A stretch of 64,000 bases of DNA from Methylococcales bacterium (lineage in GTDB: Bacteria > Pseudomonadota > Gammaproteobacteria > Methylococcales > Methylomonadaceae): positions 1-64,000 of the forward strand of contig JAPLRZ010000063.1 in NCBI GenBank assembly GCA_026398895.1. The letters run 5' to 3'. This document shows, piece by piece, positions 22,839-64,000 of this stretch (the first letter of the stretch is position 1; each line of letters begins with the position of its first letter). A program made the translations under genes and the position numbers. The notes under the pieces were generated by a model. That model did not search any database. It was given only the letters and a program-made list of their open reading frames with translations, and was not told the origin of the DNA.

Positions 22839-23161
22839 TTTTCTAGGCTTTCAGCGCGGGGCGGGTTATTCAACCCGCTCCAGATATTTGAATTCTAGTA
22901 TAACGCTCAACACAATACCACAGCCAAAACGTTGCGACTGGGTATATACCCAGTCGCGCTTCGTTATCACGTCTTATGTATATTGTAGGGTATGCAAAAA
23001 GCAAGACAACCTTATATAAATGTGATATATGTATATTAATATTTTTTCTGTCTAAACCACTGCAAAATTCATGTGTCGCGGCACGTTTTTTGAAATATTC
23101 CTGTTCATCCCCTGATAGCGCGTTCAAGAAAACTTGACCACCACACATAACTATTTTAAAT

Positions 23162-24193: not shown

Positions 24194-24477
24194 AAATTTA
24201 GTGGGATTAAAAACAAGCTTGGATTGAAGCCAACGAAGAAATTACCGCGCCTGTTACCCACGTTGTCGAAACTGAAACGACACGCGGTAGTCGTAGTGTT
24301 AACGTTCAACAACCTACTCAATAAGTTATTCAAAACTTTGCTAATTTACAAGATACGATTAAGGTGTTTGCGGTTTATACTTTGAATTCGATTAAAGAAA
24401 TTTCTAATGCGAATGTGGATAAAGTCACTTTGGAGTTTGGCGTTTATATTGGCGGTGAAGCGGGGATTCCTTATATT

Positions 24478-24680
24478 ACTAACCTTTGGTGCTAGTTTAA
24501 ATTAAGCAGCTAAAACAGTAAGCGATTGTTTTTAATGGAGTCCAATAGCTTTAGCTATTGCTGATTTGTAAAAAGCTGAAGCTTTTTGACTCCTATTCCC
24601 TTCTAATAGCGGTAAACAAAAAAATGTTTTAATCACAACACATTGATTTATTTTGTTTATTTTTAACCGTGCAGTGTTCG
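24478..24680. mobile_element. MITE-like element copy A (truncated, inverted relative to copy B at 59763-59963)
   Basis: Reverse-complement identity over about 180 bp with 59790-59960, apart from a 6-bp indel and a few substitutions. Only one TIR end (aacctttggtgctagtt) is recognisable. Confidence 0.5.
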
Positions 24681-25609: not shown

Positions 25610-26095
25610 CTACGCCTCTTTGGCTTTTCCTAAGCCAAAAGATTCAAGTAACATCAACGCTACGCCCAATGTAATTGCTGAATCGGCAATATTAAATGCG
25701 GGCCAGTGCCAAGTGCCATAATAGACATCGAGAAAATCGATGACGTAACCGTAAGCTAAACGGTCAATTAGATTGCCGATTGCGCCACCCAACACTAGCG
25801 ATAACGCAATGGCTAATAAGGTTTCGTGTTTTTGCAAACGACTGAGCCAGACGGCGATGATTATACTAATTCCTAAGGCTAAGCCTGCAAAAAACCAGCG
25901 TTGCCAACCACCCGCTTCACTTAAGAAACTAAACGCTGCGCCTGTGTTGTGAACATAAGTAATCTTAAAAAATGGCAATACGGGTATAGATTGATAAAGC
26001 TGCATCGAGCTATCGATGATTAATTTACTGCCTTGATCCAACACAATTGCCAACAGTGATAAACCTAACCATTTTAACATCGTAAAATCACGCAT
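25610..26095 (-). CDS. lspA: Lipoprotein signal peptidase (signal peptidase II)
   Basis: Conserved LspA blocks: [33 protein letters not shown]. The ATG at 26093-26095 overlaps the last ileS codons, the classic ileS-lspA arrangement. A longer GTG start at 26110 is possible. Confidence 0.85.
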
Positions 26096-28952
26096 AGTGT
26101 CGTTTTTCACCCGTGCCTGCTACGTTTGAAACGCAACGGCTACATAGTTCTGGATGTTTTTCATCTTCACCCACGTCAGCGCGTTGATGCCAACAACGCA
26201 CACATTTTTTATGTTCAGACACATAGACTTTCAATCTCACGCCCTGCATATCGGTTTGTACCGCATCTTCAGGGCAGTCATATTCATAGTCATTGACCGC
26301 CGTGGCTCTGGAAGTCATCAAAATAAAATGTAGTTCTTTTTCCAAACTTTTTAACACGTCAAAAAAGTGCAGTTCTTTGGAAACATCACTTAACACATGG
26401 AATACTAGATAATCATAATACAATACCACTTCCGCATTGAGTGATGAGCCAATCAGCCCTTTAGCGCGACTTTTTTCTAACTCTTTACCGATGGTGGCGC
26501 GAATGTCCATGAGTCGTTGCCAAAAAGACCGATTCATCGGGGATTTTTCGTCCAGTGGTACTAAACCGTCATACCATGTTTCTAAAAACACTGATTCACT
26601 ACGTTCACCAGGAAGATATTGCCAGATTTCATCAGCGGTATAGCTGAGTATAGGGGCTAACCAGCGTGTTAAGGCTTCCAATACATGATACATAGCAGTC
26701 TGTGCAGAGCGGCGGGCAATACTATCGGTTTTGCAGGTGTATTGCCGATCTTTAATGATGTCCAGATAAAAACCACCTAAGTCTATCGCGCAAAAATGAT
26801 GCACCTCTTGGTAAATTTGTTGAAAGGCGTAATTTTCGTAAGCGGTTTTAACGCCTTCTTGTAACAAAAATGCCCTATCAATTATCCAGCGGTCGAGAGC
26901 TAATAAATCGTCATTAGCCACTAAGTGTTGTACAGGATCAAAATCCGCTAGATTGGACAACAAAAATCGCGCGGTATTTCTTAAACGTCGATAACCATCA
27001 GAGGTGCGCTCTAAAATTTCATCGGATACTCGCATTTCAGCACGGTAATCAGTAGACGCTATCCATAAGCGCAACACATCGGCACCTAGATTTTTCATTA
27101 CCGATTGCGGTGGAATCACATTACCCTTGGATTTGGACATTTTTTCGCCGTTTTTATCGACGGTAAAGCCATGTGTTAGCACTGATTTGTAAGGTGCGAT
27201 TTCATTCATGGCAATCGATGCTAATAACGACGATTGAAACCAACCTCGATGTTGATCTGAGCCTTCTAAATATAAATCGGCAGGAAATCGTAGTTGTTCA
27301 CGTCTGTTTAAAACTGCCTCATGGGTAACACCCGAATCAAACCACACATCCAAGGTGTCAGTAGCTTTGTCGTAATCTTTTGCTTCATCACCGAGTAACT
27401 CTGCTACCTCTAACTCAAACCATGCGTCTATGCCTTGTTGTTCAATGCGTAGGGCGATTTGTTCAATCAGCTCAACGGTGCGCGGGTGTAGCTCGGAGGT
27501 TTCTTTATGAACAAAAAAAGTGATGGGTACGCCCCAAGTACGTTGTCGTGAAATACACCAATCTGGGCGACCATCTATCATGCCTTCAATACGCGCTTTT
27601 CCCCAATCGGGAATCCACTCTACATGTTGCACTTCATTCAAAGCACGTTCACGCAATTGCTTTTGATTCATGGAAATAAACCATTGCGGGGTGGCACGGA
27701 AAATAATCGGTGTGTGATGTCGCCAGCAATGCGGATAGCTGTGCAGAATGGCGTGGTGATGAACTAATTTACCGTTAGCCTCCAGCACTTCTAATACATG
27801 GGCATTGGCATTAAAAACGTGTTCACCTGCGAATAGTTCGGTGCTGGGTAAAAATACCCCATCGCCACCGACAGGATTATCAATCAGTAAACCGTATTGT
27901 CGTCCAACTACATAATCTTCTTGACCATGACCAGGCGCAGTATGCACCGCGCCTGTGCCTGCATCGGTAGTGACGTGATCGCCTAAAATGACGGGGACTT
28001 GTCTATCATAAAAAGGATGCAGTAACCGCTGATACTCTAAGTCTGAGCCTTTGCAATAGGCAATCACACGATAATCGTCAATCCCATAACGCGACATGGT
28101 GTCTTTAAGTAAGGCTTCCGCTATCACTAAACGTTCGCTAGGGCATTGCACCACCGCGTATTCTAAATCTGGGTTTAACGCCACCGCCTGATTTGCGGGT
28201 AACGTCCACGGTGTGGTTGTCCATATCACCACCGATAAATCACCGTGTCCTTCATGATCGGGTACATGATGACAGTTCGCTAAAAACGCATCTTCATTTG
28301 CCACAGTAAAGCGCACATCAATGGCGGGTGAGTGTTTATCTTCGTATTCTACTTCCGCTTCCGCCAACGCAGAACCGCAATCAGTACACCAATGCACAGG
28401 TTTTGATCCTTTGGTAATATGCCCGTTAGCAGCGATTTTACCCAAAGAACGCACAATGTCGGCCTCAAAAGCAAAATCCATTGTTAAATACGGATGATCC
28501 CAATCGCCTAAAATACCCAAACGCACAAAAGCTTCTTTTTGAATGTCAACTTGCTTAGCGGCATATTCTCGACAGGCTTTACGAAACACGCTAGGCGATA
28601 CTTTAATCCCTGCTTTACCGATTTTTTTCTCAACTTGCAATTCAATCGGCAACCCGTGGCAGTCCCAACCTGGAATATAAGGCGCGTCAAAGCCGCTTAA
28701 AGTTTTGGATTTAACAATAATATCCTTGAGAACTTTATTAACCGCATGACCGATATGAATTTCACCATTGGCATAGGGAGGACCATCGTGCAGAATAAAC
28801 GGCGGTCGTCCTGCACAAGTTTGACGAATTTTTTGATACAACGTTGTTTCATTCCATTTCTTCAAACGCTCAGGTTCACGTTGTGCCAAATTGCCCTTCA
28901 TGGGAAACGCCGTATTAGGCAAATTGAGGGTTTTTTTATAATCGGTAGTCAT
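26088..28952 (-). CDS. ileS: Isoleucine--tRNA ligase
   Basis: HIGH motif ([15 protein letters not shown]), KMSKS motif ([10 protein letters not shown]), and a C-terminal zinc-finger Cys pair (CVRCWH...CSRC). The 954-aa length fits. Confidence 0.9.
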
Positions 28953-29099
28953 AAACTCTTTATCTCTGGATTCAATTCTTAAAGGTTACGCGCCATAACG
29001 TAAGAATATTTAGTTTGTATTGTATCAGCTACAAGACGACTATCAACGTTAAGCCTTTATCTTTGATTACAAAGTCCACGAAAAACACCAAAAATATGA

Positions 29100-29517
29100 A
29101 AAAATTAGCGATGGCTAAAATTTTTTCAAGGGCATACAAACTTAGGTTTGTAGGCGATAGCGTCACTGCCCACAGTTAAGGATTATTCTGTTTGCTCTGA
29201 ACCGACTGGAAAATTATGTATAGAATTTATGGGTAACGGTGGAGTGCAAGCTTTGCTTGCACTCCTCTTTAGTTGTGGGCAGTTTGGATTAGGTTATTTA
29301 CAAGAATTGAATATTTGGATAGTGGATTAAATCTGTTGTTTTTACTTTTGAATGACTGCCAGTCATTTATATCGCAATAACATATTTAACCCACTAAGTT
29401 CTTAGTAACAAGTAAGGATGTATTGCTTAGCGTTGGAGGTCAGGCTTTGCCTGACTTGCAAGCAAAGCTTGCACTCCTAAATACACGCAAACTTATTGTC
29501 ACGCACTTACCTAAATT
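29100..29517. repeat. Repeat-rich intergenic region upstream of ileS, including a near-copy of the 24-bp palindrome and a 113-bp repeat
   Basis: 29135-29152 is tacaaacttaggtttgta. Several hairpins are present (ggagtgcaagctttgcttgcactcc; inverted ctgcccaca/tgtgggcag). 29320-29370 is a ttaaatctgttgtttttacttttgaatgactgccagtcat element also seen at 34884-34960. 29395-29510 is 113 bp, 112/113 identical to 54228-54345. Confidence 0.6.
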
Positions 29518-30189
29518 TTAAATATAGCGAATAGCTAATTTTTTAGCTACCGTAAAGTGCGAATCAAGTACCGTCACTATTTCTTCATAGTCGATAATTT
29601 TTTTATCGTTGCTTAGCATATAGTTAGCTAACCCGCTAATTGCATACCAATGCGTCCATTGATCGATGAACTTAAATGCGGCTAAAAAAAGTTCGCTAAT
29701 TTTCTGTTCCCGTTCACTGTTATCAGAGATAAAACATTGAAGATAGTCATCGACAACTTCCAAATCAGCTGAGCCGCCATAATTGTGTAGCACGTTTAGG
29801 GGGACTAAAAGAGGATTAATCAGTTCATTATCACGCTGTGCAACATAGTGTGCTTCAGCTAATGAGCCGATTAATAAATTAATAATGTCTGCTTCAAACG
29901 CTTGTTGATAAGCGTGTTTTTGTGCATTTGAAAAATTGTATATCGCATCCTCAAACGAAGAAGGCAAGGTATGAATCAAACGACCACCTTCTACTTTGGT
30001 TACGCAGTCATCATTAGGGCAGTTAGCACAATCACTGATAATAATCTGGAAAAAAACGGGTGGAAGCTGTTTTTGCTTATTACCAAAGTAAATTGCCGCC
30101 GCGTGTCCCGCTTCATGAATAGCCGTTTTTTTTCTGAGTTCAAGGTAATCAACGGAGTTAGCGTCGCTGGGTGTCTGTCTACGTTTCAT
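29518..30189 (-). CDS. Standalone FtsH-like (peptidase M41-type) zinc-metallopeptidase-domain protein, HEXXH
   Basis: TAIHEAGHAAAIYF matches the FtsH protease-domain zinc site (aYHEAGHA). No AAA+ ATPase domain or TM helix is present. The start was chosen at ATG 30187-30189 (MKRRQ), which has a gaggt RBS. The ORF tool's 30300 start adds 37 residues with no RBS. Confidence 0.5.
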   Translation of the reverse strand: MKRRQTPSDANSVDYLELRKKTAIHEAGHAAAIYFGNKQKQLPPVFFQIIISDCANCPNDDCVTKVEGGRLIHTLPSSFEDAIYNFSNAQKHAYQQAFEADIINLLIGSLAEAHYVAQRDNELINPLLVPLNVLHNYGGSADLEVVDDYLQCFISDNSEREQKISELFLAAFKFIDQWTHWYAISGLANYMLSNDKKIIDYEEIVTVLDSHFTVAKKLAIRYI

Positions 30190-30827
30190 AAAATAACCTC
30201 GAAGTTTAAAAAAACGAACTAGCATCACTGCCTGAATTATTAAGACTACAGCGTTTAACGGGGCTTGAGAATGCGGCATATTGTCGCGTGACAAATGCAA
30301 CGTAATCTTGGCAAACTAACTACATCCCCGTTATCGCTTTAACTAGACTTTAATTTTTGGCACACAAGCACACCCTGAAATGGTGCTTAAATTCAAACAA
30401 TAGCACCAATACCTTATGGGATAATTAAAAATTAAAAATAATTTAAATTATTTTGATTAGTTGATTAATATTGATGCAATATCAACGCGTTAATTTTTTA
30501 AGCATCTTTTGCGCAATATCAAACTTAAACTAACCAACAAAACTATTTGTTTTTATCTGGTTTCATTTATAATGCCCGCTTAAAATCACATCAACCCATT
30601 GATTTTTGTTTAATTTCAATAACTTACTTTTCCATTAACAAAAAACTTTAGCATGGATGTCGTTCACCTTAACCGAATGATGTGACAAGTGTATGATTCA
30701 AAAGGTAGTCGCGGCTTAAGCGATAATTGATTTACTAATTATTTACTGTGGGAGTGAGGGGATTTGTGATTTAAATCGTCCATAGTCAAAGAAAATATTT
30801 ATACGGACTGCGTGGTAATCGTACCTC

Positions 30828-31637
30828 ATGTTAAAACATACGATAAACGATGCAGATAATGAACATGAAAAGGTAGTGATTTTTACAATGTATTTGTTGA
30901 ATAATATGGCATCTCCAATAATTGCAAAAGAACGGTTATGGCTTAATGGCTTAATGGGCGAAGAGCAACCCGAATCTATGGCAGGCTTATTGCTTACCTT
31001 GGTGTTGTTATTACATATCGGGGTGTTTTACATCATTAAATCAGCCGCGCCAGAGCCGATAACAATACCGATAAAAATCATGGAAGTGTCTATGGTCGCC
31101 GAACCACTTCCCGTAGCGGATGTCGCGCCACCTGCGCCCACACCCCCTCCACCGCCGCCAAAACCTGTTCCACCTAAACCCAAACCCGTGGTTAAGCCCA
31201 AGCCTGTGCTTAAGCCTAAACCTGTGATTGCCAAGACAGAGCCGATTTATATTCCTGTTGATGCAGACCCAAAGCCTGTTGTGAATCCCGCACCGCCTGC
31301 GCCACCACAGCCTAAAGCCGCGCCAGCACCAAGCCCGCAACCCGCGAAGCAAACATTTACCGAGGCACGAGCGGATGCAGGCTATGGTTATAACCCTAAA
31401 CCCAAATATCCCAATGTGGCGCGGAGTCGGGGTTGGGAAGGCAAAGTAGTTCTGCAAGTACACGTTTCTGCCGATGGTGAAAGTGAGAGCGTCACGGTAT
31501 CGCAAAGTAGCGGACATGACATATTGGATGAAGCAGCGGTTTCTGCCGTAGAAGGTTGGCGATTTAAACCTGCTAAACGCGGCGATACGGCGGTTGCCAG
31601 TACAGTGAGTGTACCGATTAACTTTAAATTAGATTAA
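30828..31637 (+). CDS. tonB: Energy transducer TonB
   Basis: An N-terminal TM anchor (LLLTLVLLLHIGVFYII), a Pro-rich spacer (PPPPPPKPVPPKPKPVVKPKPVLKPKP) and the C-terminal TonB domain (ARSRGWEGKVVLQVHVSADGE...GWRFKPA). The start is uncertain (alternatives at 30888 and 30906). Confidence 0.75.
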   Translation: MLKHTINDADNEHEKVVIFTMYLLNNMASPIIAKERLWLNGLMGEEQPESMAGLLLTLVLLLHIGVFYIIKSAAPEPITIPIKIMEVSMVAEPLPVADVAPPAPTPPPPPPKPVPPKPKPVVKPKPVLKPKPVIAKTEPIYIPVDADPKPVVNPAPPAPPQPKAAPAPSPQPAKQTFTEARADAGYGYNPKPKYPNVARSRGWEGKVVLQVHVSADGESESVTVSQSSGHDILDEAAVSAVEGWRFKPAKRGDTAVASTVSVPINFKLD

Positions 31638-53569: not shown

Positions 53570-54022
53570 CTAGGCGTGTGCAGGTGGGGCGCGTGGGGAA
53601 TGGGGAAAATACGCAAGCCGTCCAAATAATGGCTCGGTATGGGTGAGTGGCGGGATAAAAAATGTGGAAAATCCCGTTTCAAATACAATAGTTGAAGCAG
53701 GTAAAAAATCGCTATGCAAATCAGCGATTATCTTATGAAGCTTATGTGTAGGTGTTGCAATGTTTCGACTAAAACCTGCATCAACACCCACCACCTGACC
53801 ATCAATATCACCACAAAACAATACGGCTTTGCACGATGAAACATTGACTGCCTGCATAGAGTCAACCGCCTCTTGTGGTGTCAAACGATCATAGACTTCA
53901 AGACCAGGAATATGCAGCCCCTGTGATAAAATTTTCTCACTAGTATGCGCATGGACTAGGGGTGCAATAAATTGCAACACGACCAAACAAGCAATAATGA
54001 ATAGGCGAAGTGAGAAAATCAT
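53570..54022 (-). CDS. Hypothetical exported protein (DUF2946-like N-terminus?) upstream of efflux system 3
   Basis: The signal peptide ends in ...FIAPLVHAHT. The low-complexity Pro/His-rich C-terminus may be read-through. No RBS or other coding signal was checked. Confidence 0.3.
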   Translation of the reverse strand: MIFSLRLFIIACLVVLQFIAPLVHAHTSEKILSQGLHIPGLEVYDRLTPQEAVDSMQAVNVSSCKAVLFCGDIDGQVVGVDAGFSRNIATPTHKLHKIIADLHSDFLPASTIVFETGFSTFFIPPLTHTEPLFGRLAYFPHSPRAPPAHA

Positions 54023-54227
54023 GACGACAATGGTATGCTATTAAAAAAAAATTAACAACTTGAAGACTAAATTATAAAGTGGTTTCATTACTTGTCAGGA
54101 ATACAAACCTAGGTTTGTACTCCATTTCGAGTAACTAATAGAAACTGAGGCACTGGATTCCAGCATCCATGCTGGAATGACGATGATCTGGCTTGAGCAG
54201 TAGTTACCTGCTGATTTTTTTGTTAAG

Positions 54228-54345
54228 TTCTTAGTAACAAGTAAGGATGTATTGCTTAACGTTGGAGGTCAGGCTTTGCCTGACTTGCAAGCAAAGCTTG
54301 CACTCCTAAATACACGCAAACTTATTGTCACGCACTTATGAACTT
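54228..54345. repeat. 113-bp repeat element (copy 2; 112/113 identical to 29395-29510) with internal hairpins
   Basis: taagttcttagtaacaagtaaggatgtattgctta[a/g]cgttggaggtcaggctttgcctgacttgcaagcaaagcttgcactcctaaatacacgcaaacttattgtcacgcactta. It lies about 100 bp downstream of a 24-bp-palindrome copy (54098-54123), as does copy 1. Confidence 0.7.
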
Positions 54346-54411
54346 ACAACCACAGATGTCTTTTTTATACCTCATCAATATACTATGTGGGTAATGGACA
54401 GGCTTTTAATC

Positions 54412-55755
54412 TTATGAAAAACTGCGATTGTAAATATGCCGTGCTAATTCAAATAGATAAGGTGATTTTTTACGGTAATCAAACTCTTCAAACGTTATTT
54501 CTACTTTTCCGATTCTTACATCTACACGCGGATAAGAGTTAATTAACCAAAACATTTGATAAAGTAATTTATCGAATAACACTTTATCTTTTCTAAGCTC
54601 TGAGTTACTTTCCTGAATATTATTGGCTAATGCTGGAAAGCGAAACGCATCTTTAATAATTTTTTCGCTGGCTACCTTATTTTGAAGGTTGCAATAAGCC
54701 TTTTTAATGTCCAGAGCAATTAATTTATTTTTATTTTGATTTTCAAAAGTTTCTTTTGTTAAATTCTCACCAGAAAACAGTCTAAATAGTATTTCTTCAT
54801 AAGTTTGCTTTACCTCGTCAAAATTAAACATAATCCGCATATTAATCATAAATAGGTAAGCGATTATTTGTTCATCAACAGCATTAAATACGGTTGAATT
54901 ATGCGTTATCCAGTTACGGGTGCTTTTCATAATCCACGCTAAACCTCTTATTTTTTTAGGTTCTGTCGCCTCCCATTCGTGCGTTAATGTTCTGATAAAG
55001 AGTTTGTACAAGGTGGATTTATCAACGGGTTCGCGCAAGGGTAAAAAATTTGCTAACACGTCTAAATAATTGTGACTATCTTCAAGGCTAATTTTCTTTT
55101 CAGATTCTTCAATAAAGCCATTAAATAACAGTTTGTTTTCAGTGTTGATTAGGTTTTTTAAACTGTGACAGGCTTCAATAATTCCGCGCCTTAATATTGC
55201 ATAAGAGGATTGTTGTGCTGTTAGCCAATCTCTTAGTTTTTCATAATCGGCATCGCTTTTTTCAAAAGCGGTGACTTTTGGCGTGTATATTTCAGTGCAT
55301 TTTTCTTCAAAACTTTTAAACGAATTCTTTTCACCTGTCATGAAACATATTCGTTCAGCAGGTACGCCTAAATGAATTAAATCGTTAAAAATATAAAAGC
55401 CGCCATTTTCGTGAAATTTACGTTTATCGGATAAGTAAGCGTCTGGAATAGGTGAATCAAACTGCTCCGCTGCAATATTATCTAAACGGATGTCAGAGAT
55501 AATGGTGTCTATTTCATGAGTTATTGAATGGGCTGCTTTAAAAGCAATGTAATCGAAATAATTACGGCATAAATAAATATTGTGTACGCTTTTTTGTTGT
55601 TCGCAGAATTTTTTTAAATCGGTGGGGCGTTTTATTAGATTTAATTCGTCTTCGTCCCAGTCATCAAAACTGAGCAGATTTTTAAACATCGATTCTAATG
55701 TGTCTGTGCCTGATGATAATGTGCCACCAAAGTCTTCAATCCATAATATATTCAT
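54412..55755 (-). CDS. REC-like receiver domain fused to an unknown approx. 290-aa C-terminal domain (candidate response-regulator-type effector)
   Basis: The N-terminus MNILWIEDFGG resembles REC strand 1 (ILIVDD). DTIISDIRLDN is positioned like the phospho-acceptor D strand, and ICFMTGE like the T/S strand. The C-terminal two-thirds is novel. The gene is strongly AT-rich and 4-nt overlap-coupled to the upstream kinase-like gene. Confidence 0.4.
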   Translation of the reverse strand: MNILWIEDFGGTLSSGTDTLESMFKNLLSFDDWDEDELNLIKRPTDLKKFCEQQKSVHNIYLCRNYFDYIAFKAAHSITHEIDTIISDIRLDNIAAEQFDSPIPDAYLSDKRKFHENGGFYIFNDLIHLGVPAERICFMTGEKNSFKSFEEKCTEIYTPKVTAFEKSDADYEKLRDWLTAQQSSYAILRRGIIEACHSLKNLINTENKLLFNGFIEESEKKISLEDSHNYLDVLANFLPLREPVDKSTLYKLFIRTLTHEWEATEPKKIRGLAWIMKSTRNWITHNSTVFNAVDEQIIAYLFMINMRIMFNFDEVKQTYEEILFRLFSGENLTKETFENQNKNKLIALDIKKAYCNLQNKVASEKIIKDAFRFPALANNIQESNSELRKDKVLFDKLLYQMFWLINSYPRVDVRIGKVEITFEEFDYRKKSPYLFELARHIYNRSFS

Positions 55756-58469
55756 GTGTTATCGCCTAATAATGATTTATGTAGTTTTAATTGTGCGGTA
55801 AAGTGTTGCTCTTCGGGTATGCAATTAAAATGCGCTTGGTCGCCTAATAATTCCATTAAGCGGTTAATAAACGCAATACCTTTGTGCGTACCTGCTAAAT
55901 TACTACTGGCGTTTGCATGGCAAGGATTTTTAACAGTGAAAATATAATTTTCTTCTATTAACTGCCAGCTAATTTGAATATGTCCTGTGCCGTTCCAATA
56001 TTTTAAGGCATTTAAAATTAATTCAGAGGTGATGGCGAATAATAGCGAAAATTTAACCTGATTGACACCAAAATTAGAGCAATTGGTTTCTTCTATGGCT
56101 ATTTCAATGCTATTAATACCATTAAGCCAGTCATAAAAAGTATTAATTCCATGATTATCGACATTAAGCGGTAAAACAGTTTCAATAAATGATTTTCGCA
56201 TGGATACAATTGATGCGGTTTCAGTGATATTTAACAGTTTTTCTAACTGGCTGGCATCACTCATAAAAATTATTCTATTTAATGATTGACGTAAAGCCGA
56301 GGCGATTACCCATTTTGGTGTTGCATCACCTGTATTATCGTTTTGCCACGCCAGTTTAAATTCTTGTGGATCATTAATAGATTGTTTAAAGGTATCTATT
56401 AAGCAATCCGTTAAAGACAACGTTGAAAATAAAGCGGCTATTTTATTAATCGCTTTATATTGTTTTTTATTTTTTTCGTAGTCTTCGCTACCTAATAAAC
56501 GAATGGCTTGTCTGAGTGATTCTGGGGCAGTGGCGAGGGCATTACGCATGGTGTGAGTGAAGAAAGAGAGCATTTCTTTTTCTTTTTCGTGTGCCATTTT
56601 GTAATATTTTTCTTTTTTTTGGATTTGTAATTCAAGTTGTTGGTTTTTTTCTTCTAACTCTGCATTTAATTTTCTAAGCTCCTTATTTTGTTCTTTTATC
56701 GTTATTCTTTGTTCAGCATATTCACAGCTATAACTTCCTACATCCCAGTCTTCGGCAATAACCTGTATTGCTTCATCCTTGCGTCCTTTATCAAGCAGAT
56801 AATCAGCTTTTTCCTTACCTTCAAGTTTTGACTCATAATCTTTCTCTTCACAATAATAAGAGAATGCTGTTTTATATGGGAACGCTATAGAATCTTTTTT
56901 TTCTATTATATCTTCATCAATCTGCTGTTGATAAAATATCACTTTATCTAAGTCTTTTTCAACAATTTTACCTTCTGCGTAATAACGAGATAATTGCAAA
57001 GAAGCTATACTTTTAATATCAGGATAATATGACATATTATAGTCTCTTTCTATTTCATCGTCTTTTTCACCGCTATTTTCAAAAGCTTTTTCATAATATG
57101 CAAAAGCAAGCGCATCATTTTTTTTAACATGATTACCTAATCGATAATAATCTGCTAAACGGATATAAGCATTGACAGATCCATATTCAGCGGCTTTGAT
57201 ATACAAGTCAATTATTTTTTGCTCACTTATTTCTAGTTCGCTATTATCACTTTCAAAGCCGTAAGCGAAATTTAAATAAATATGAGCTAATCTATATTTG
57301 TCAGATTTTTCTTGCGTGAGCGATTTTTCCAGCCATTCTAAAGCCAGTATTCGATTTTTTTTAACCTTTATACCTTCAAAATAAACTTCGGCTAATAAAT
57401 AATATGCTTCAATATCTCCTTGTTCTGCTTTTTTTTCAAACCATTGTAATTCTTCTTCTAAATTTTCATTTTCTTTATCGTGACGAAAATATTGATATAG
57501 TTTATCTTCTGCGCAACTATAATAATCATTCAGTTTAAATCCTGCTTGAGTGTCTTTTTGTTCATCCAATTTTTTAAGCAACTCAAAACCAAGTTTTATA
57601 TTTTTCTCAATGCCCATTCCCTTGAGATAACAATCAGCTAACAAATATTGCGCTTTAATCTTATCTTGTTCAGCAAGTTTATTAAGCAACTCAAAACCAA
57701 GTTCTGGATTTTTTTCAATACCGATACCATTAAGATAACAATCGGCTAACTCATATTGAGCTTCAATATTTCCCCGTTCAGCGGATTTTTTACACCATTC
57801 AAAACCAAGCACTGAATCTACATCCGTACCTTTACCGTAAAAATAACACATGGCTAATTCATATTGCGCTTCAATATGTCCTTGTCCAGCCACTTTTTTA
57901 AACCAATCAAAAGCAAGCTCTGGATTTTTTTCAATATCAAAACCATACAGATAATCTATGGCTATCGAATATTGAGCATCAATATTCCCTTGTTCAGCCG
58001 CTTTGTTTAGCCATTCAAAAGCAAGCCCCAGATTTTTTTCAACCCCCCAACCATATTTATAATTTAAACTCGTTCTATATTGAGAAGCAGCATCTTCTAA
58101 TTCAGCCGCTTTTTTAATCCATGCAAAATATAATTCATCGTTATTTTGTTTTTTATAATAAACTCCAATTGCCCTATAAGCTTTGGAAAACTTAGGATTT
58201 AATTGAATAGATTTATTAAAATCGCCTAAAGCAAGTTCATATTTTTCCATATTAAAATAATAACGACCACGCTCAAAATAAGCTTCGTAACCATTAGCAT
58301 CTAATTGAATAGCTTGCATCAATACTTTTAGAGCAAAATCGAATTTTTTTTGTTCAAGACAATCACGCCCTAACTTAACAAGCTCTGCATAACTTCTAAT
58401 TTCTACTTTTTTTGCCACTTCGTTTTGTGCTGTTTGTTCTTTTAAATCTGTCATGGCTTTATCATCCAA
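55752..58469 (-). CDS. Sel1/TPR-repeat protein fused to a histidine-kinase-like module (coiled coil + H-box + HATPase_c-like C-terminus)
   Basis: About 10 Sel1-like repeats (AxxWfxKAAEQGnxxAQYxLAxxYxxGxGxEKN) in residues about 30-470. A coiled coil (ELRKLNAELEEKNQQLELQIQKKEK). An H-box-like FFTHTMRNALA. C-terminal G-box-like ELILNALKYW...GTHKGIAFINRLMELLG. Confidence 0.5.
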   Translation of the reverse strand: MDDKAMTDLKEQTAQNEVAKKVEIRSYAELVKLGRDCLEQKKFDFALKVLMQAIQLDANGYEAYFERGRYYFNMEKYELALGDFNKSIQLNPKFSKAYRAIGVYYKKQNNDELYFAWIKKAAELEDAASQYRTSLNYKYGWGVEKNLGLAFEWLNKAAEQGNIDAQYSIAIDYLYGFDIEKNPELAFDWFKKVAGQGHIEAQYELAMCYFYGKGTDVDSVLGFEWCKKSAERGNIEAQYELADCYLNGIGIEKNPELGFELLNKLAEQDKIKAQYLLADCYLKGMGIEKNIKLGFELLKKLDEQKDTQAGFKLNDYYSCAEDKLYQYFRHDKENENLEEELQWFEKKAEQGDIEAYYLLAEVYFEGIKVKKNRILALEWLEKSLTQEKSDKYRLAHIYLNFAYGFESDNSELEISEQKIIDLYIKAAEYGSVNAYIRLADYYRLGNHVKKNDALAFAYYEKAFENSGEKDDEIERDYNMSYYPDIKSIASLQLSRYYAEGKIVEKDLDKVIFYQQQIDEDIIEKKDSIAFPYKTAFSYYCEEKDYESKLEGKEKADYLLDKGRKDEAIQVIAEDWDVGSYSCEYAEQRITIKEQNKELRKLNAELEEKNQQLELQIQKKEKYYKMAHEKEKEMLSFFTHTMRNALATAPESLRQAIRLLGSEDYEKNKKQYKAINKIAALFSTLSLTDCLIDTFKQSINDPQEFKLAWQNDNTGDATPKWVIASALRQSLNRIIFMSDASQLEKLLNITETASIVSMRKSFIETVLPLNVDNHGINTFYDWLNGINSIEIAIEETNCSNFGVNQVKFSLLFAITSELILNALKYWNGTGHIQISWQLIEENYIFTVKNPCHANASSNLAGTHKGIAFINRLMELLGDQAHFNCIPEEQHFTAQLKLHKSLLGDNT

Positions 58470-58525
58470 TTAGTTAAACACAAGGAAATGCGGTATTTTG
58501 TTCGTTACTTAGTAGATTAAACTAA

Positions 58526-59119
58526 TTACCCTACATCCACACGAATAGGGATTTTTAATGCAGTGCTGATTTCTTCTAAAAAAACTTTCTTTTGGTTTGT
58601 ATTAGATAAAGTATCAATATACCAACCCTCACACTGGTGAATAGTGCCGTCGGAACGAAACTTTGTTTTACTGACTAGCTCATGCCTGTTCGCTATTATC
58701 CCTAATTTAGCAACATGATCTAACTTTAATATCCGCAATGCCTCTACAAATGTTTTAGCCGAGCTATTTAAATAAATTTGTTTTCCATTGTTAAGAAAAG
58801 TAACGCGCAATCTTACATTTGAAGCTCGTGCAGCTCTTGTGCGAGAAGCATTTAAATTGCCTGCCACGACTCTTTGTGCTGTTTTAGATTTACTAAAAAT
58901 CCCCTTATTCCAGTGCATTGATAAATTAGCAACCTCCTGAATGAAGCTTTTTAATTCCATAGCTGATGCCTTTGTCATATCCACTTTGCCATAGTCATCT
59001 TCCATTATTGCATCTGCACAGGATTGTTTTATGTCATCGGCAATATGATTTAAGCCGCTAATCGCTGCGTTAAATGATTCGGCAACCCTTTGGTTATCGT
59101 GTTCTGTGATGATTTGCAT
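58526..59119 (-). CDS. Hypothetical protein, first gene of the AT-rich island (possible HxxKG Hpt-like motif)
   Basis: A 197-aa protein on the same strand, 56 bp upstream of the kinase-like gene. It contains ...ANLSMHWNKG..., reminiscent of the Hpt HxxKG phosphotransfer motif, but the support is weak. Confidence 0.3.
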   Translation of the reverse strand: MQIITEHDNQRVAESFNAAISGLNHIADDIKQSCADAIMEDDYGKVDMTKASAMELKSFIQEVANLSMHWNKGIFSKSKTAQRVVAGNLNASRTRAARASNVRLRVTFLNNGKQIYLNSSAKTFVEALRILKLDHVAKLGIIANRHELVSKTKFRSDGTIHQCEGWYIDTLSNTNQKKVFLEEISTALKIPIRVDVG

Positions 59120-59762
59120 GATGATTGCCTCGTTGTTTGTTGTTCGCTTTGAACTTGGGCATAGTTTAGCCCTTTGTATTCGGTAGCTAAAGGGAAAGCT
59201 GTAGGAGAGTTTATGAGAATTTGCCGCGTGGTTTTTGGTTTTATGAACGGCTATTAATGGGCTTTGTGTGCATTAAATGCTTTATAAAACAATGGCTTGT
59301 TTGATGGAGGTTTGTGGGAGAGATTGTGGACTGTGATTTTCAGGATTTGGTGGATTTATAGCGGTGTGCTTAGAATATATAGCTAACCATCAATAAAATG
59401 ATTACAAAACCGTTCGCACTGAGTCTGTCATGAGCTTGTCGAATGATGTGAATGTGGTTCGACTGTTCGACAAGCTCACAGCTCACAGATCACCACGAAC
59501 GGTATCATTTTATTGTGCGTTAGCTTCTATTTATCAAAGCAACTCAACAGGCTTTTTCTGCGTTGCAAGGTTTAAAGGCGGCGTAACATCAGATTGTAAT
59601 ATTTTTTTAACATTTCTATGCTCCAATAGTTAAGATTAGTTTTTTAGTGCGTTGTTAAACGCCCAACGTCACGAACTTGAGGACTGGCTTGAGGCAGAAC
59701 GAGAATTTACGCCATAGCAAGGAAGAGTACGGCTAAACATATAATCCGCCAACACCCTGTTA

Positions 59763-59963
59763 ACCTTTGGTGCTAGTTAGCTCCATAAAAATAAACAAGA
59801 TAAATCAATGTGTTGCGATTAAAATATTTTTTTGTTTACCGCTATTAGAAGGGAATAGGAGTCAAAAAGCTTCAGCTTTTTACAAATCAGCAATAGCTAT
59901 TGGACTCCATTAAAAACAATCGCTTACTGTTTTAGCTGCTTAATTTAAACTAGCACCAAAAGT
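59763..59963. mobile_element. MITE-like element copy B (about 200 bp) with 17-bp terminal inverted repeats
   Basis: The left end aacctttggtgctagtt and the right end aactagcaccaaaagtt (16/17 complementary) flank an AT-rich core with internal hairpins (aaaagcttcagctttt; ggagtc...gactcc). The core is about 95% identical to the reverse complement of 24478-24680. Confidence 0.55.
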
Positions 59964-60175
59964 TATTATGTATATGTTTAAAGTTAATTTGAATATATAC
60001 TCAAACGTTTTTTAAAATGTAGAGTTTTTTCACTGTTCTGAGCTATTTAATAACCAGAGGCGGTTAGGTTTTTGTCATAATCAGAATTGCTGAGCATGAA
60101 TTCCATGTGCATTGATAATTGTGCCAACGACTTTACTATTCAAACAATTTATCGCTTTTCTTCGAGTTCCCAAAA

Positions 60176-61282
60176 ATGCCGCAATTGCGCACCCCATATT
60201 ATCTAATCGACGAAGTTAGACTGAAAAAAAATCTCGAAATCATACGACTCATTCGCGAGCAGTCTGGTGCAAAATCAGTTCTGGCACTAAAATGTTTTTC
60301 AACTTGGTGCGTATTCGATTTGATGCGCCAATACATGGACGGCACAACCAGCAGCTCACTCTACGAAGCGCGGCTCGGTCGCGAAAAGTTCGGCAAGGAG
60401 GCTCATGCTTACAGCGTGGCTTATTCTGCTGAAGAAGTTGAAGCGGTAGCTGAGTTTGCCGATAAGGTGATATTCAATTCTATCTCGCAATTGAACAGGT
60501 TTCATGAACGGGTGAGCGGCTTGAAAGTCGGTCTTCGGGTCAATCCTGGTATCAGTTATTCCCATTTTGATCTGGCAGACCCAGCCCGCAGTTGTTCGCG
60601 GCTTGGGGTATGCAGTGAACAGGAACTCGATGCTGTGGCGGATCTGATCAGCGGTGTCATGTTCCATTTCAATTGCGAAAACGATGATATTGAAAACATC
60701 GCCGACGCTATAGAGCAGATTGGCATTAAGTACGCTTCTCTACTGAAAAAAATGGACTGGGTCAGTCTCGGCGGGGGCATTTATTTTACCAAAGACGGCT
60801 ATCCGCTGGAAAGATTCTGCCGCGTATTGAAGAATTTTAGCGAAAGATACGGTGTGCAGGTCTATCTTGAGCCAGGTGAGGCAGCCATAACCTGTAGTAC
60901 CGAACTGGTCACCACGGTACTTGATGTAGTCCATAATGAAGTCGCTATCGCTATCGTTGATGCCTCTGTCGAGGCGCATCTGCTGGATCACCTGATCTAC
61001 AGAACAAGCCCGAAAATTTCATTCCCTAGCTCTGGCACTAACCAGATTCTCATCGCTGGTCGGTCATGTCTGGCTGGAGATCTGTTCGGCAGCTACGAAC
61101 TGGAAACAGCACTGAAGATTGGAGACGAGGTGCGTATCGCCGATGCAGCGGGATACACGATGGTGAAGAAAAACTGGTTCAATGGTCTTGCGATGCCGTC
61201 GATTGCGGTACGGAGGTTGGACGGTTCTGTAGAACTGGTACGCAGTTTTGACTATAAAGATTACATTGGAAATTTATCATAA
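60176..61282 (+). CDS. nspC: Carboxynorspermidine/carboxyspermidine decarboxylase
   Basis: MPQLRTPYYLIDEVRLKKNLEIIRLIREQSGAKSVLALKCFSTW matches the NspC N-terminus (TPYYLIDE...GAK.LLALKAF). The 368-aa length fits. The ORF tool's TTG at 60119 precedes the conserved start. GC content and codon usage are distinctly higher than in the flanks. Confidence 0.8.
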   Translation: MPQLRTPYYLIDEVRLKKNLEIIRLIREQSGAKSVLALKCFSTWCVFDLMRQYMDGTTSSSLYEARLGREKFGKEAHAYSVAYSAEEVEAVAEFADKVIFNSISQLNRFHERVSGLKVGLRVNPGISYSHFDLADPARSCSRLGVCSEQELDAVADLISGVMFHFNCENDDIENIADAIEQIGIKYASLLKKMDWVSLGGGIYFTKDGYPLERFCRVLKNFSERYGVQVYLEPGEAAITCSTELVTTVLDVVHNEVAIAIVDASVEAHLLDHLIYRTSPKISFPSSGTNQILIAGRSCLAGDLFGSYELETALKIGDEVRIADAAGYTMVKKNWFNGLAMPSIAVRRLDGSVELVRSFDYKDYIGNLS

Positions 61283-61297
61283 AGAGGAATTCATAAT

Positions 61298-62701
61298 ATG
61301 AAAAAAAACGTAATGATTATCGGGGCAGGCGGAGTGGCGCACGTTGCGGCTCACAAGGCAGCGATGAACAATGATGTTCTGGGCGATATTTGTATCGCAT
61401 CGCGAACGCAAGCCAAATGTGATGCGATCATCGAAAGCGTGACGCGGAAAGGGCATCTCAAGGATTCGGCTGGCAGGCTTTATTCAGCTCAGCTCGATGC
61501 ACTGGATATTCCTGCGACAGTAAAGTTGATAAATGAAACCAAAACGGGGATCGTAATCAACCTTGGCTCAGCTTTCATCAATATGTCGGTACTGGAGGCG
61601 TGCATCGAAACTGGCGCGGCGTATATCGACACCGCCATCCATGAAGATCCAGACAAAGTCTGTGAAGAGCCACCTTGGTATGCTAATTACGAGTGGAAGC
61701 GAAAGGAGCGTTGCGATGAAAAAGGAGTAACTGCAATCCTTGGTGCTGGTTTTGATCCAGGAGTAGTCAATGCTTACTGCGCTCTTGCTGTCAAACGTTA
61801 CTTCGACAAGATTGATACGATAGACATACTGGATGTGAATGCAGGAAGTCACGGCAAATATTTTTCGACCAACTTTGACCCAGAAATCAATTTCCGCGAG
61901 TTCGTAAAGGTCTGGACTTGGATTGACCAAGAGTGGAAAGAGTATCCCACCCACTCGGTGAAACGCGAGTATGATTTCCCTGTTGTCGGAAAGCAGCCAA
62001 TTTACCTGAACGGTCATGACGAACTGCACTCCCTATCAAAGAATATTGATGCCAACAGCATTCGTTTCTGGATGGGTTTTGGCGACCACTACATAAACGT
62101 ATTCACGGTACTTCGCACGCTCGGCTTTCTCTCACATCTACCAGTGACACTGACTACTGGTCAGGAAGTTGTGCCGCTCAAGGTCGTCAAGGCACTGCTA
62201 CCTGATCCGATGACGCTTGCTCCTGGTTATACAGGCAATACCTGCATCGGCACCTTCGTTAAGGGCTGGATGGAAGGGGAAAAGCGAGAAGTATTGATTT
62301 ATCAAGTCTCGGATCACAAGCAATGTTACGAAGAAGTTGAGTCTCAGGGGATTAGTTACACCGCTGGCGTTCCACCGATTGCAGCCGCTATGCTGATTGC
62401 CAACGGAGTTTGGGACGTGAAGAAGATGGTCAATGTCGAGGAACTTGATCCAGAACCGTTCATCGAAATTCTTGACCAAATTGGTCTGCCTACCGAGGTG
62501 AAGGAAATCAAGCCAGGCAGCAAGCATTCATTCGACGGAACAGTCAGGTCTCTTGAGAAAGAGCTTTTAGAATCGACGGCTACAGTCACGGTTTCTGCGG
62601 CGAATCCTATGATTGCGGTTTCGCCATGCAAGCCAAAGCACAAGAAAGATAAAGCAGATTCAGGAAAAGAGAAAAAATCTCACAAGAAGAAAGACGAGTA
62701 G
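61298..62701 (+). CDS. Carboxynorspermidine/carboxyspermidine dehydrogenase (saccharopine dehydrogenase family) with a Lys-rich C-terminal tail
   Basis: VMIIGAGGVAHVAAHKAAMNNDVLGDICIASRT is a Rossmann/CANSDH-like N-terminus. It lies 15 nt downstream of nspC with a aggaat RBS. The unusual C-terminal tail KPKHKKDKADSGKEKKSHKKKDE is not seen in canonical CANSDH (about 414 aa). Confidence 0.65.
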   Translation: MKKNVMIIGAGGVAHVAAHKAAMNNDVLGDICIASRTQAKCDAIIESVTRKGHLKDSAGRLYSAQLDALDIPATVKLINETKTGIVINLGSAFINMSVLEACIETGAAYIDTAIHEDPDKVCEEPPWYANYEWKRKERCDEKGVTAILGAGFDPGVVNAYCALAVKRYFDKIDTIDILDVNAGSHGKYFSTNFDPEINFREFVKVWTWIDQEWKEYPTHSVKREYDFPVVGKQPIYLNGHDELHSLSKNIDANSIRFWMGFGDHYINVFTVLRTLGFLSHLPVTLTTGQEVVPLKVVKALLPDPMTLAPGYTGNTCIGTFVKGWMEGEKREVLIYQVSDHKQCYEEVESQGISYTAGVPPIAAAMLIANGVWDVKKMVNVEELDPEPFIEILDQIGLPTEVKEIKPGSKHSFDGTVRSLEKELLESTATVTVSAANPMIAVSPCKPKHKKDKADSGKEKKSHKKKDE

Positions 62702-62928
62702 AAACATCGTCCTATTTCACTGATGTGTCAACACTTTTTAGGACACAAAGTTAAGCAGCTTTAGGCTGACTTTCAAATTCTACAGCAGACAAATATCCAT
62801 TACTGGAATGGAGTCGTTGTCGGCTGTAGAAGACTTCGATGGTGTCGAAAGAAGGATTTTCTGGCGACACCATTTCGCTTCTCATACTGAGTATGTAGCA
62901 CTAAAATCAAAAGTTCTAAGGAAATTCC

Positions 62929-64000
62929 ATGATCACTACAAAAAATTTGCAACAGCTTGCTGAAACCCACGGAACACCGTTGTTCGTGATAGATCACGAC
63001 GAACTACGAAGCAATTATGCAACTTTCAAAAAATATCTCCCGCGTGTCCAAGCCTATTGCGCGATCAAGGCGAATCCAGATCCAGCCATAGTAAAAACTC
63101 TGTTCGATGTCGAAGCTAGTTTTGATGTATCGTCTATACAGGAATTCAATGTAGTCTACGAAAATATAAAGACTATGCCTGAGCAGGAGCGGCATGAGTG
63201 GATCAGGGACAAGATCATCTATGCAAATACGATCAAGGCAACCGAGACGCTAGCAAAGCTTGACAAGTACAAGCCGTTGCTCACCTTTGATAATCGCGAA
63301 GAGATCATCAAGATCAGGCAGTTCGCCCCTAATGCCAGACTTGTGCTTCGCCTTCTGGTTTCCAACGCGGGGGCTATGGTAGAGCTTTCCTCAAAATTTG
63401 GGGCGGAACCTAGCGAGGCAGTCGATCTTATTTTGGAAGCCGAAAAGCAGGGGTTAACCGTCGAGGGGCTGAGCTTCCACGTCGGAAGCCAAACCAGCAA
63501 TTTTGAAAACTATGTGCAGGCAATCAATCTTGCGGCACTTATATTCAAGGAAGCTAGAGAACGCGGTTACGACAAGATGAATTTACTGGATATAGGTGGT
63601 GGTTTTCCAGCTCCTTACGATGCGTCAGTAAAGCCTTTCAGCGAATTGGCAGCGGTGATAAATACTGAGCTAGACAGGCTCTTTCCACCAGAAATAAAAA
63701 TTATTGCCGAGCCAGGAAGATTCATAGTTGCAACCGCAGGCACAGCGGTATCGAAGATCATCGGCAAGACGGTTCGGCACGGCAAACTATGCTATTACAT
63801 TGATGACGGGGTCTATCACACTTTTTCTGGTGTCATCTTTGACCACTGCGAATATCATTTTGACTCCTTCAAAAAAGGGTCAACCCAGATATGTACCGTG
63901 TTTGGCCCTACCTGTGACGGGCTGGATGTTATTTCAAAGACAGAAGAACTTCCCTCCAATCTGGAGCGTGACGACCACCTCTACAGTAGAAACATCGGTG
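62929..64000 (+). CDS. Fold-type III PLP-dependent decarboxylase (ornithine/lysine/DAP decarboxylase family), 3'-partial at the window edge
   Basis: Read directly from the sequence; it is absent from the ORF track because it has no stop within the window. Motifs: YCAIKANPDPAIVKTL (PLP-Lys), LSFHVGSQ, EPGRFIVA, GPTCDGLD. An aaggaaattccATG RBS is present. Confidence 0.75.
   Translation, partial: MITTKNLQQLAETHGTPLFVIDHDELRSNYATFKKYLPRVQAYCAIKANPDPAIVKTLFDVEASFDVSSIQEFNVVYENIKTMPEQERHEWIRDKIIYANTIKATETLAKLDKYKPLLTFDNREEIIKIRQFAPNARLVLRLLVSNAGAMVELSSKFGAEPSEAVDLILEAEKQGLTVEGLSFHVGSQTSNFENYVQAINLAALIFKEARERGYDKMNLLDIGGGFPAPYDASVKPFSELAAVINTELDRLFPPEIKIIAEPGRFIVATAGTAVSKIIGKTVRHGKLCYYIDDGVYHTFSGVIFDHCEYHFDSFKKGSTQICTVFGPTCDGLDVISKTEELPSNLERDDHLYSRNIG

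Follow-up and report, generated by a model that had tools for sequence, protein, structure and literature searches.

Organization of the locus

The DNA analyzed is a stretch of 64,000 nucleotides (the window) of contig JAPLRZ010000063.1 from a Methylococcales bacterium (GCA_026398895.1). The subject of this work is a three-gene cassette near its end, which encodes a 197-aa protein (p197), a sensor histidine kinase, and a receiver (REC) protein with a C-terminal effector domain (REC-X). The three genes lie head to tail on the minus strand in this order. The genes, taken from the list of open reading frames (ORFs), and the domains of the kinase and REC-X are as follows.

58526-59119, minus strand: p197 gene, 197 aa
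55752-58469, minus strand: sensor kinase gene, 905 aa from a TTG start
56988-58379, minus strand: kinase sensor region, residues ~31-494, two N-terminal TPRs followed by Sel1 repeats (Pfam, NCBIfam)
55755-56717, minus strand: kinase core, residues 585-905, a coiled-coil helix leading into DHp, a helical insert and the CA domain
54412-55755, minus strand: REC-X gene, 447 aa
55216-55755, minus strand: REC domain, residues 1-180 of REC-X, a (beta-alpha)5 fold with long insertions
54412-55215, minus strand: effector domain, residues 181-447 of REC-X plus stop, ~267 aa, mostly helical with one beta-hairpin (409-422)

The true kinase start is probably not the TTG but an ATG at 58454, which gives a protein of 900 aa. 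The stop codon of the kinase and the start codon of REC-X share the overlap ATGA. A first-pass annotation, made from the sequence by a model, had described this region as an AT-rich mobile island encoding a repeat-sensor kinase and a receiver joined to a novel domain. That core reading was right, and the three ORFs, their coordinates and the overlap agreed with the ORF list and with the sequence itself. The GC content was 0.29-0.36 over positions 54250-58750 and 0.43-0.49 on either side, and the cassette as a whole (0.331) was as AT-rich relative to the remainder of the window (0.429) as had been claimed. Low GC was found in every cassette gene (0.32-0.37 each, kinase core and REC-X included) and not just in the repeat region. 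The Rfam search of the island flanks gave no match, and the promoter and terminator scan gave no signals above shuffled expectation.

The sensor histidine kinase

The sensor region of the kinase matched Sel1 in Pfam with an E value of 1.7e-55 over 7 stretches, and TPR_1/TPR_11 at residues 31-95, while NCBIfam repeat-protein matches covered residues 115-494. Seven Sel1 units are visible in the DNA itself as 108-bp repeats (57399-58128, 62-81% identity), which suggests a fairly recent repeat expansion inside the sensor. A long coiled-coil helix precedes the DHp domain.

The phospho-acceptor candidate is His639 within the H-box FFTHTMRNAL (FTHTMRNAL, residues 637-645, nt 56535-56561), and the N-box is LNALKYW (Asn820). 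Both His639 and Asn820 are invariant in the family alignment. The G1 box (DxGxG) is replaced by VKNPC, and a G2-like box reads GTHKG. Across the three kinase lineages described below, the G1 position carries (K/E/R)N-P/x-(C/S) and the G2 position G(T/S)HKG, in place of the canonical DxGxG and GxGxG. HATPase_c of Pfam reached an E value of only 0.067 on the full window kinase; it was detected in 13 of 14 members of the kinase-module family, with a best E value of 1.9e-5.

The AlphaFold model of the kinase core had a predicted local distance difference test score (pLDDT) of 77. The Foldseek search of this model against the PDB returned 210 matches at E ≤ 1e-3, and all the top ones were DHp+CA histidine kinases (EL346, AdeS, CusS, HK853, DesK). 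A DHp domain with a conserved His and a GHKL fold with an N-box, the features of a two-component kinase, are thus both found. The C-terminal 321 residues had 39 close homologs, joined to varied Sel1 or TPR N-termini. No 19-residue window exceeded a Kyte-Doolittle value of 1.6 in p197, the kinase or REC-X, and domain searches of the kinase found no receiver. On the modelled fold, the 905-aa protein is a cytoplasmic Sel1/TPR sensor fused to a true DHp+CA histidine-kinase fold. The Sel1/TPR repeats, the coiled coil, the H-box, the HATPase_c-like C-terminus and the lack of a receiver domain and of a transmembrane helix had all been read from the sequence beforehand, and each of them held in these searches.

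The receiver domain of REC-X

The AlphaFold model of REC-X, built from a 48-sequence alignment, had a pLDDT of 85 and a predicted template modelling score of 0.88. The acidic pair Glu7-Asp8 follows beta1, Asp88 lies at the end of beta3, Thr140 at the end of beta4, and Lys166 after beta5. The (beta-alpha)5 fold, acidic pair, Asp, Thr/Ser and Lys of a CheY-like receiver are therefore all present. Asp88 (nt 55492-55494) is the predicted phospho-acceptor. All 67 unique sequences compared, which range from 29% to 85% identity, carry E7, D8, D83 and D88 without exception. Response_reg of Pfam was absent on the window protein, and one divergent member reached it at an E value of 2.3e-5. These results support well that the N-terminus of REC-X, previously called receiver-like, is a true receiver fold with an intact phospho-acceptor pocket.

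REC-X is 100% identical to the database entry 'MAG: hypothetical protein NTW85_16100'. It had 308 homologs in the 90%-clustered database, all unannotated and none with a Pfam domain.

The effector domain of REC-X

Ten residues of the effector domain are invariant in 67/67 sequences (R189, R255, H259, E260, W261, R280, W282, H285, R307 and E320), and none of the invariant residues is an Asp. A set of mostly Arg and His with no invariant Asp is what metal-independent catalysis would lead one to expect. The motif RNWITH occupies residues 280-285 (nt 54901-54918), with R280 and H285 as its invariant ends, and position 281 is Asn (or His) in at least 90% of the 67 sequences. A second invariant motif is R-x3-H-E-W. 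HEPN proteins reportedly carry an Rx4-6H motif, and a polar residue after the Arg is said to be common. Read as a motif, R280-N-W-x-x-H285 fits this signature.

The C-terminal domain, which had matched nothing recognizable at first reading, gave no match in Pfam, NCBIfam or PADLOC for the window protein or 20 members, nothing among PDB sequences by three profile searches, and no Foldseek PDB match covering the domain. Alignment with hhalign to Escherichia coli RnlA also gave nothing. One RVT_1 match (E value 0.025-0.06, in one member alone) was treated as chance. All 150 matches listed from a profile search of 1.84 billion representatives were members of the same family, which comprises 383 representatives at 50% identity, almost all with the REC plus C-terminal domain architecture.

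The domain resembles the HEPN RNases (RnlA, HepT, Csm6, Cas13 and the KEN domain of RNase L/Ire1) in being helical, in its invariant R-N-x-x-x-H and in the dominance of Arg and His, but it is about twice the typical HEPN size. From these sequence features, and within the picture developed below, the effector is possibly an HEPN-type RNase, at somewhat less than an even chance.

The kinase and REC-X form a conserved pair

The distribution of the cassette was analyzed in six exact-match contig loci, 80 loci from species-representative genomes, and one plasmid. Wherever a locus was complete enough for a decision, a gene for the kinase module lay directly upstream of REC-X, and in most cases the two genes overlapped by 4 nt. 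An apparent lack of the kinase in 28 loci was an artefact of a narrow hidden Markov model (HMM); these loci carry two other kinase lineages, with the H-boxes MFAHNFLGTL and MFAHKFRSPL.

The H-box type and the REC type were matched without exception in 57 loci. The H-box FFTHTMRNAL pairs with the REC N-terminus MNILWIEDF (14/14 loci), MFAHNFLGTL with (T/P)HFLWVEDF (11/11 loci), and MFAHKFRSPL with S(Y/H/Q/C)FLW(I/V)EDF (32/32 loci). Such co-variation in sequence, in three exclusive lineages, is as would be expected of cognate phosphotransfer partners.

The pair is similar to classical two-component systems in its DHp+CA and (beta-alpha)5 folds, its phospho-His and phospho-Asp pocket, its coupled adjacent genes and its lineage-specific pairing. 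It differs from them in that both domains are too divergent for Pfam thresholds, the output domain is unrecognised, and the cassette is mobile and mosaic.

Among the 80 loci, 53 are named Methylococcales. The others come from Beggiatoaceae/Thiotrichaceae, Pseudanabaena, Nitrosomonas, Thiocystis, Sulfuritalea, Leptospiraceae and unclassified bins. Two tandem kinase/REC-X cassettes and an extra kinase were found in Parabeggiatoa (L086:2785-11383). A single 722-aa ORF (L034:59-2227) contains the kinase module followed by the effector domain with no receiver between them, and could be a fusion or a product of decay.

Allele replacement and domain recombination

A close relative of the window, locus L068, is 96.9% identical to window positions 59966-64000 and 86% identical to 59137-59671, and rejoins the window at 54381-54495. 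Between these breakpoints it carries an unannotated 298-aa gene, a kinase whose sensor consists of an N6 methylase and a specificity domain, and a REC-X of ~34% identity. The breakpoints coincide with the island as first delimited (54412-59119). The 298-aa gene (L068:6622-7518) occupies the p197 slot and contains LLDGQHRL, reminiscent of DGQHR/ParB-like proteins; this reading was set aside, as Pfam gave no match at E ≤ 0.01.

Sensors vary among the kinases and are of the Sel1, TPR or N6_Mtase+Methylase_S type. The last type is joined to the same kinase core in L026:2975-5311, L057:7566-9992, L084:1151-3592 and L068:7586-9985, and the L068 sensor matched PADLOC mad2 (MADS; 5.5e-23), MTase_I and Specificity_I. 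The identities of two loci to the window proteins, taken domain by domain, are as follows.

L014 against the window: identity of 98% in REC, 35% in the effector, 85% in the kinase core and 25% in the sensor
L012 against the window: identity of 67% in REC, 96% in the effector, 63% in the kinase core and 12% in the sensor

The kinase core and the receiver thus travel together, and the sensor and the effector recombine independently. These sensor swaps and the recombination at domain level, like the invariant RNxxxH of the effector and the linked NUDIX gene described below, were not part of the first-pass annotation.

In 41 of 43 loci the cassette was lower in GC content than the flanking DNA, with a mean difference of 9.7 points. 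Several genomes have two or more copies, near-identical copies (97-98% protein identity) occur on other contigs, and one copy is carried on a 149-kb Methylomonas plasmid. The upstream neighbours are unrelated housekeeping genes, which differ between genomes, and toxin-antitoxin genes (RHH and PIN-like pairs, HigB, ParE) are frequent nearby. It had been considered at the outset that the genes might be a common housekeeping two-component system of normal GC content. This is not so, as shown by the different allele at the same site in L068 and the AT-richness in 41/43 loci.

p197 and the linked NUDIX gene

The p197 protein comprises a helical N-terminus with an invariant DD-x-K, a basic linker and a conserved C-terminal domain of ~95 aa. 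No Pfam match was found across 23 members, and p197 had no PDB relative and no NCBIfam or PADLOC match. The first search returned 14 database homologs and, together with a non-homologous upstream gene in L001, had suggested that p197 is unlinked to the pair. This was rejected by an HMM-iterated search: 26 of the 80 genome loci have a p197 homolog as the gene next upstream of the kinase, in the same orientation and in many cases overlapping it. These 26 loci cover all three kinase lineages and all sensor types. p197 therefore recurs as the first gene of the operon without being obligatory; that it acts as a regulator or adaptor is a guess.

Two further roles of p197 were rejected. It had been proposed as a possible Hpt from its HWNKG stretch, which is indeed present, but most homologs have another residue (R, C, N, F and others) at the position of the His, and no Hpt match was found in Pfam across the 23 members. 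As a hidden receiver analogous to DtcB of Detocs, it gave a probability of 0.2% by hhalign against the REC family. Members of the p197 family were also found as the last gene of another trio (288-313 aa, 91 aa and 194 aa; no Pfam matches) with no kinase pair, and these trios (L007:5851-7585, L008, L010:5777-7582 and L011) adjoin ParE/antitoxin genes.

In 47 of the 80 loci, the kinase/REC-X pair is accompanied by a linked gene for a ~560-aa protein with a NUDIX domain (E value 3e-6 to 1e-3; box REISEEVGL). The gene is downstream of the pair in most loci and upstream in L047 and L053, so that the linkage is kept despite the changed gene order. When 47 loci with at least 5 kb of downstream sequence were considered, it was present in 32 and absent in 15. 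Examples are as follows.

L001:10214-11902: NUDIX gene
L012:12056-13735: NUDIX gene
L045:6230-7867: NUDIX gene
L053:5582-7288: NUDIX gene

Small genes, which often overlap the REC-X stop, can separate REC-X from the NUDIX gene (e.g., L002:9377-10055, L004:2161-2860 and L092:10359-11049). An RHH gene occurs there in 24 loci and a DUF3368/PIN-like gene in 11; in 7 loci a 69-aa gene is found instead. The NUDIX gene is also carried by 23 of the 26 genome loci with p197. No trace of it was found in the window, and the window cassette is therefore a reduced form.

Directly upstream of the kinase in Nitrosomonas sp. ANs5 (L042:5837-7414), a ThiF (E1-like) protein with a weak Prok-JAB match was observed. 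The pair of ThiF and Prok-JAB domains is typical of ubiquitin-like conflict systems.

Comparison with Detocs and Ambrosia

Detocs consists of the TPR-kinase DtcA, the stand-alone receiver DtcB, whose role is to buffer stray phosphate, and DtcC, in which a receiver is joined to an effector. This effector is PNP in 80% of operons and another toxic domain in the rest; defence depends on the phospho-His and the phospho-Asp (Rousset et al. 2023, 10.1101/2023.01.24.525353). The present cassette shares with it a soluble TPR-type repeat sensor-kinase and a separate receiver protein with a swappable effector, and the logic proposed for the cassette is the same. Several differences were found. No stand-alone receiver is present in the window between 52 and 62 kb, and the effector is neither PNP nor a hydrolase nor a membrane domain. 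Long insertions are present in the receiver, the kinase is without a canonical G1 box, and Detocs contains neither of the frequent partners p197 and NUDIX.

The PADLOC Detocs profiles (PDC-M60B/C) scored the controls taken from the supplement of the Detocs paper (VaDtcC, 1.4e-64; VaDtcB, 1e-17; hydrolase-type DtcC, 8.7e-19, the last through PDC-M60C by REC alone). The same profiles gave no match at E ≤ 1 to REC-X or the kinase of three lineages (the window, L068 and L037). For DtcA, no PADLOC match to the kinase core of the three lineages was found (E ≤ 1), Detocs representation being judged via the DtcB and DtcC controls. The hhalign alignment of REC-X with VaDtcC gave a probability of 43%, over beta1 and beta3 only. 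By profile, then, the cassette is not a member of Detocs, and a functional parallel is reasonable by analogy. The parallel with Detocs drawn in the first-pass annotation stands as far as the functional architecture is concerned; its description of DtcB as an Hpt does not, since DtcB is a stand-alone receiver, and no membership by Detocs profiles was found.

Ambrosia (AbrR/A/B/C/D) consists of separate genes for an XRE protein, an N6 methylase, a HATPase kinase, a REC-wHTH protein (wHTH, winged helix-turn-helix) and an HNH endonuclease, and is proposed to act through transcription (10.1101/2025.09.30.679545). Restriction-modification (R-M) parts and a kinase/receiver pair occur in one locus there, and some relatives of the cassette fuse the N6 methylase and specificity domain to the kinase. 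In the cassette family, however, a methylase/specificity part, where there is one, is fused to the kinase as its sensor, and the receiver and an enzyme-like domain are joined directly in one protein. The window island contains neither a methylase gene nor an HNH or XRE gene, and no wHTH was detected in REC-X (Pfam, 20 members). The DefensePredictor paper pictures a predicted, unvalidated TPR-HATPase-REC system, in detail too scant for a comparison.

Interpretation

The folds, catalytic residues, gene coupling, co-variation, mosaicism and allele replacement described above are the observations on which the interpretation is built. That the cognate two-component pair acts as a mobile conflict cassette, most likely against phages or plasmids, appears a little better than an even proposition. 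Precedent for the defence reading comes from Detocs and Ambrosia, in which two-component defence has been validated. Judged by sequence comparison, the cassette is probably a variant among two-component defence systems and belongs to no described defence family.

The proposed mechanism begins with the Sel1/TPR sensor, which would bind an invader-derived protein, whereas the variants with a methylase and specificity sensor would recognize DNA instead. The kinase would then autophosphorylate at His639, and the phosphate would pass to Asp88 of REC-X. Phosphorylation of the receiver could release or dimerise the effector domain, which, as a metal-independent HEPN-type (RNxxxH) nuclease, would arrest the infected cell. 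The full picture, in which interchangeable sensors feed a kinase/receiver switch that controls a new Arg/His nuclease fold, often together with NUDIX and p197, as an undescribed phosphorelay immune family of methanotrophs and large sulfur bacteria, is offered tentatively and has roughly one chance in three in our estimation.

Several results weigh against this defence reading. No PADLOC defence model matched the core proteins, as found in the search of the three proteins that had been proposed beforehand and in which the controls scored; the full kinase gave only a PtuA match, in its repeat region. For the effector, none of the searches (Pfam, NCBIfam, PADLOC, PDB profiles, Foldseek and RnlA) detected similarity to an HEPN family or structure, and because no HEPN profile or fold matched, its activity is read from a short motif and from residue chemistry. 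As the kinase G1 box is replaced by N-x-C, ATP binding is plausible from the sequence and not assured. No family member was found on viral contigs, and the window copy, without its NUDIX partner, may be incomplete.

Alternatively, the cassette may serve a non-immune signalling pathway, in which a protein ligand from the cell or its environment is sensed by the kinase, an enzyme gated by REC makes or destroys a small molecule that NUDIX processes, and the window copy is partial. The NUDIX linkage in 47/80 loci, kept when the gene order changes in L047 and L053, would be accounted for, and the invariant R, H and E residues suit a nucleotide-binding active site equally well. Receivers fused to enzymes are also common in signalling. 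Left unexplained, however, are the allele replacement, the mosaicism, the methylase/specificity sensors, the multiple paralogous cassettes, the plasmid carriage and the low GC content, and about a third of the well-flanked loci have no NUDIX gene. A non-immune signalling role is unlikely.

It is more improbable still that the cassette is a selfish addiction module or a module of competition between elements, whose loss or misregulation is toxic and which serves mobile elements and not host immunity. RHH and PIN-like pairs, HigB and ParE are frequent neighbours, one copy is on the 149-kb plasmid, and the cassette is mobile and AT-rich, as such a module would be. A large variable ligand sensor and a phosphorelay are nevertheless unneeded for simple addiction, and most copies are chromosomal with none on viral contigs. 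The addiction and defence readings also overlap, and sequence alone can hardly tell them apart.

A similarly low probability is given to the window copy being a decaying remnant, non-functional after the loss of the downstream NUDIX and small genes beside a dispersed repeat. None of the three genes is truncated or has lost an invariant residue, 15/47 well-flanked loci are likewise without NUDIX, and the near-identical copies (97-98%) on other contigs also speak against decay, whereas the absence of any NUDIX trace in the window, its presence in 23/26 p197 loci, and a 390-bp spacer downstream of REC-X that holds only the 115-bp repeat and palindromes would fit it.

A transcriptional regulator whose C-terminal domain is a novel DNA-binding output for nearby genes (p197, NUDIX or the adjacent efflux operon) is very improbable and the least favoured reading of all. 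In its favour, response regulators are for the most part transcription factors, a REC-wHTH regulator operates within the defence system Ambrosia, and the effector is mostly helical with a C-terminal beta-hairpin. Against it, no HTH or winged-helix family was detected in 20-45 members, the absolute His/Glu/Arg invariance across 29-85% identity is typical of catalysis, and the flanking genes differ between genomes, so that no conserved regulon lies next door.

To our knowledge, Detocs and Ambrosia are the only validated defence systems that signal through a histidine kinase. If the defence reading is true, the cassette would be a third histidine-kinase-based system, unrelated by sequence to these two and with an effector domain without known relatives, and the methylase/specificity-kinase fusions would link DNA recognition of the R-M type to phosphorelay signalling. 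The clean modular recombination offers a natural system for invader recognition by repeat sensors and for the gating of a toxic domain by a receiver. The cassette lies in methanotrophs, whose phage defences have, as far as we know, been little studied.

Flanking repeats and other features of the window

Two repeated elements flank the cassette and are outside the system.

54224-54338, no strand assigned: dispersed repeat of 115 bp in the spacer downstream of REC-X
59761-59968, no strand assigned: element of ~205 bp resembling a miniature inverted-repeat transposable element (MITE), with 18-nt inverted ends, upstream of the cassette

The dispersed repeat is 99% identical to positions 29395-29509 and is accompanied in the 390-bp spacer only by palindromes. 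The MITE-like element has an inverted copy at 24477-24665 with 95-97% identity, and is absent from the orthologous spacer of L068, which measures 117 bp (L068:5985-6102) against 295 bp in the window (59671-59966), consistent with a recent insertion. Both elements had been taken as brackets of the island that mark horizontal acquisition. They are present, the left one with 115 nt instead of 113, but this role was rejected. Because their other copies (24477-24665 and 29395-29509) bracket the housekeeping genes ileS (26088-28952) and lspA (25610-26110), the repeats are ordinary dispersed intergenic elements and give no evidence of acquisition.

Between the RND efflux genes and the island is a 150-aa ORF (53570-54022) with a strongly hydrophobic, signal-peptide-like N-terminus, for which neither a family match nor a homolog in the retrieved loci was found. 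Elsewhere in the window, a 343-aa protein (23162-24193) contains six near-identical tandem repeats of 63 bp (21 aa), located at 23150-23653 in the DNA, followed by an HD-GYP-like C-terminus (HHERMDGSGYP). A 260-aa ORF (29518-30300) with an HEAGH (HExxH-like) motif adjoins the other copy of the 115-bp repeat, within a second AT-rich stretch (29000-31000, GC 0.34-0.37).

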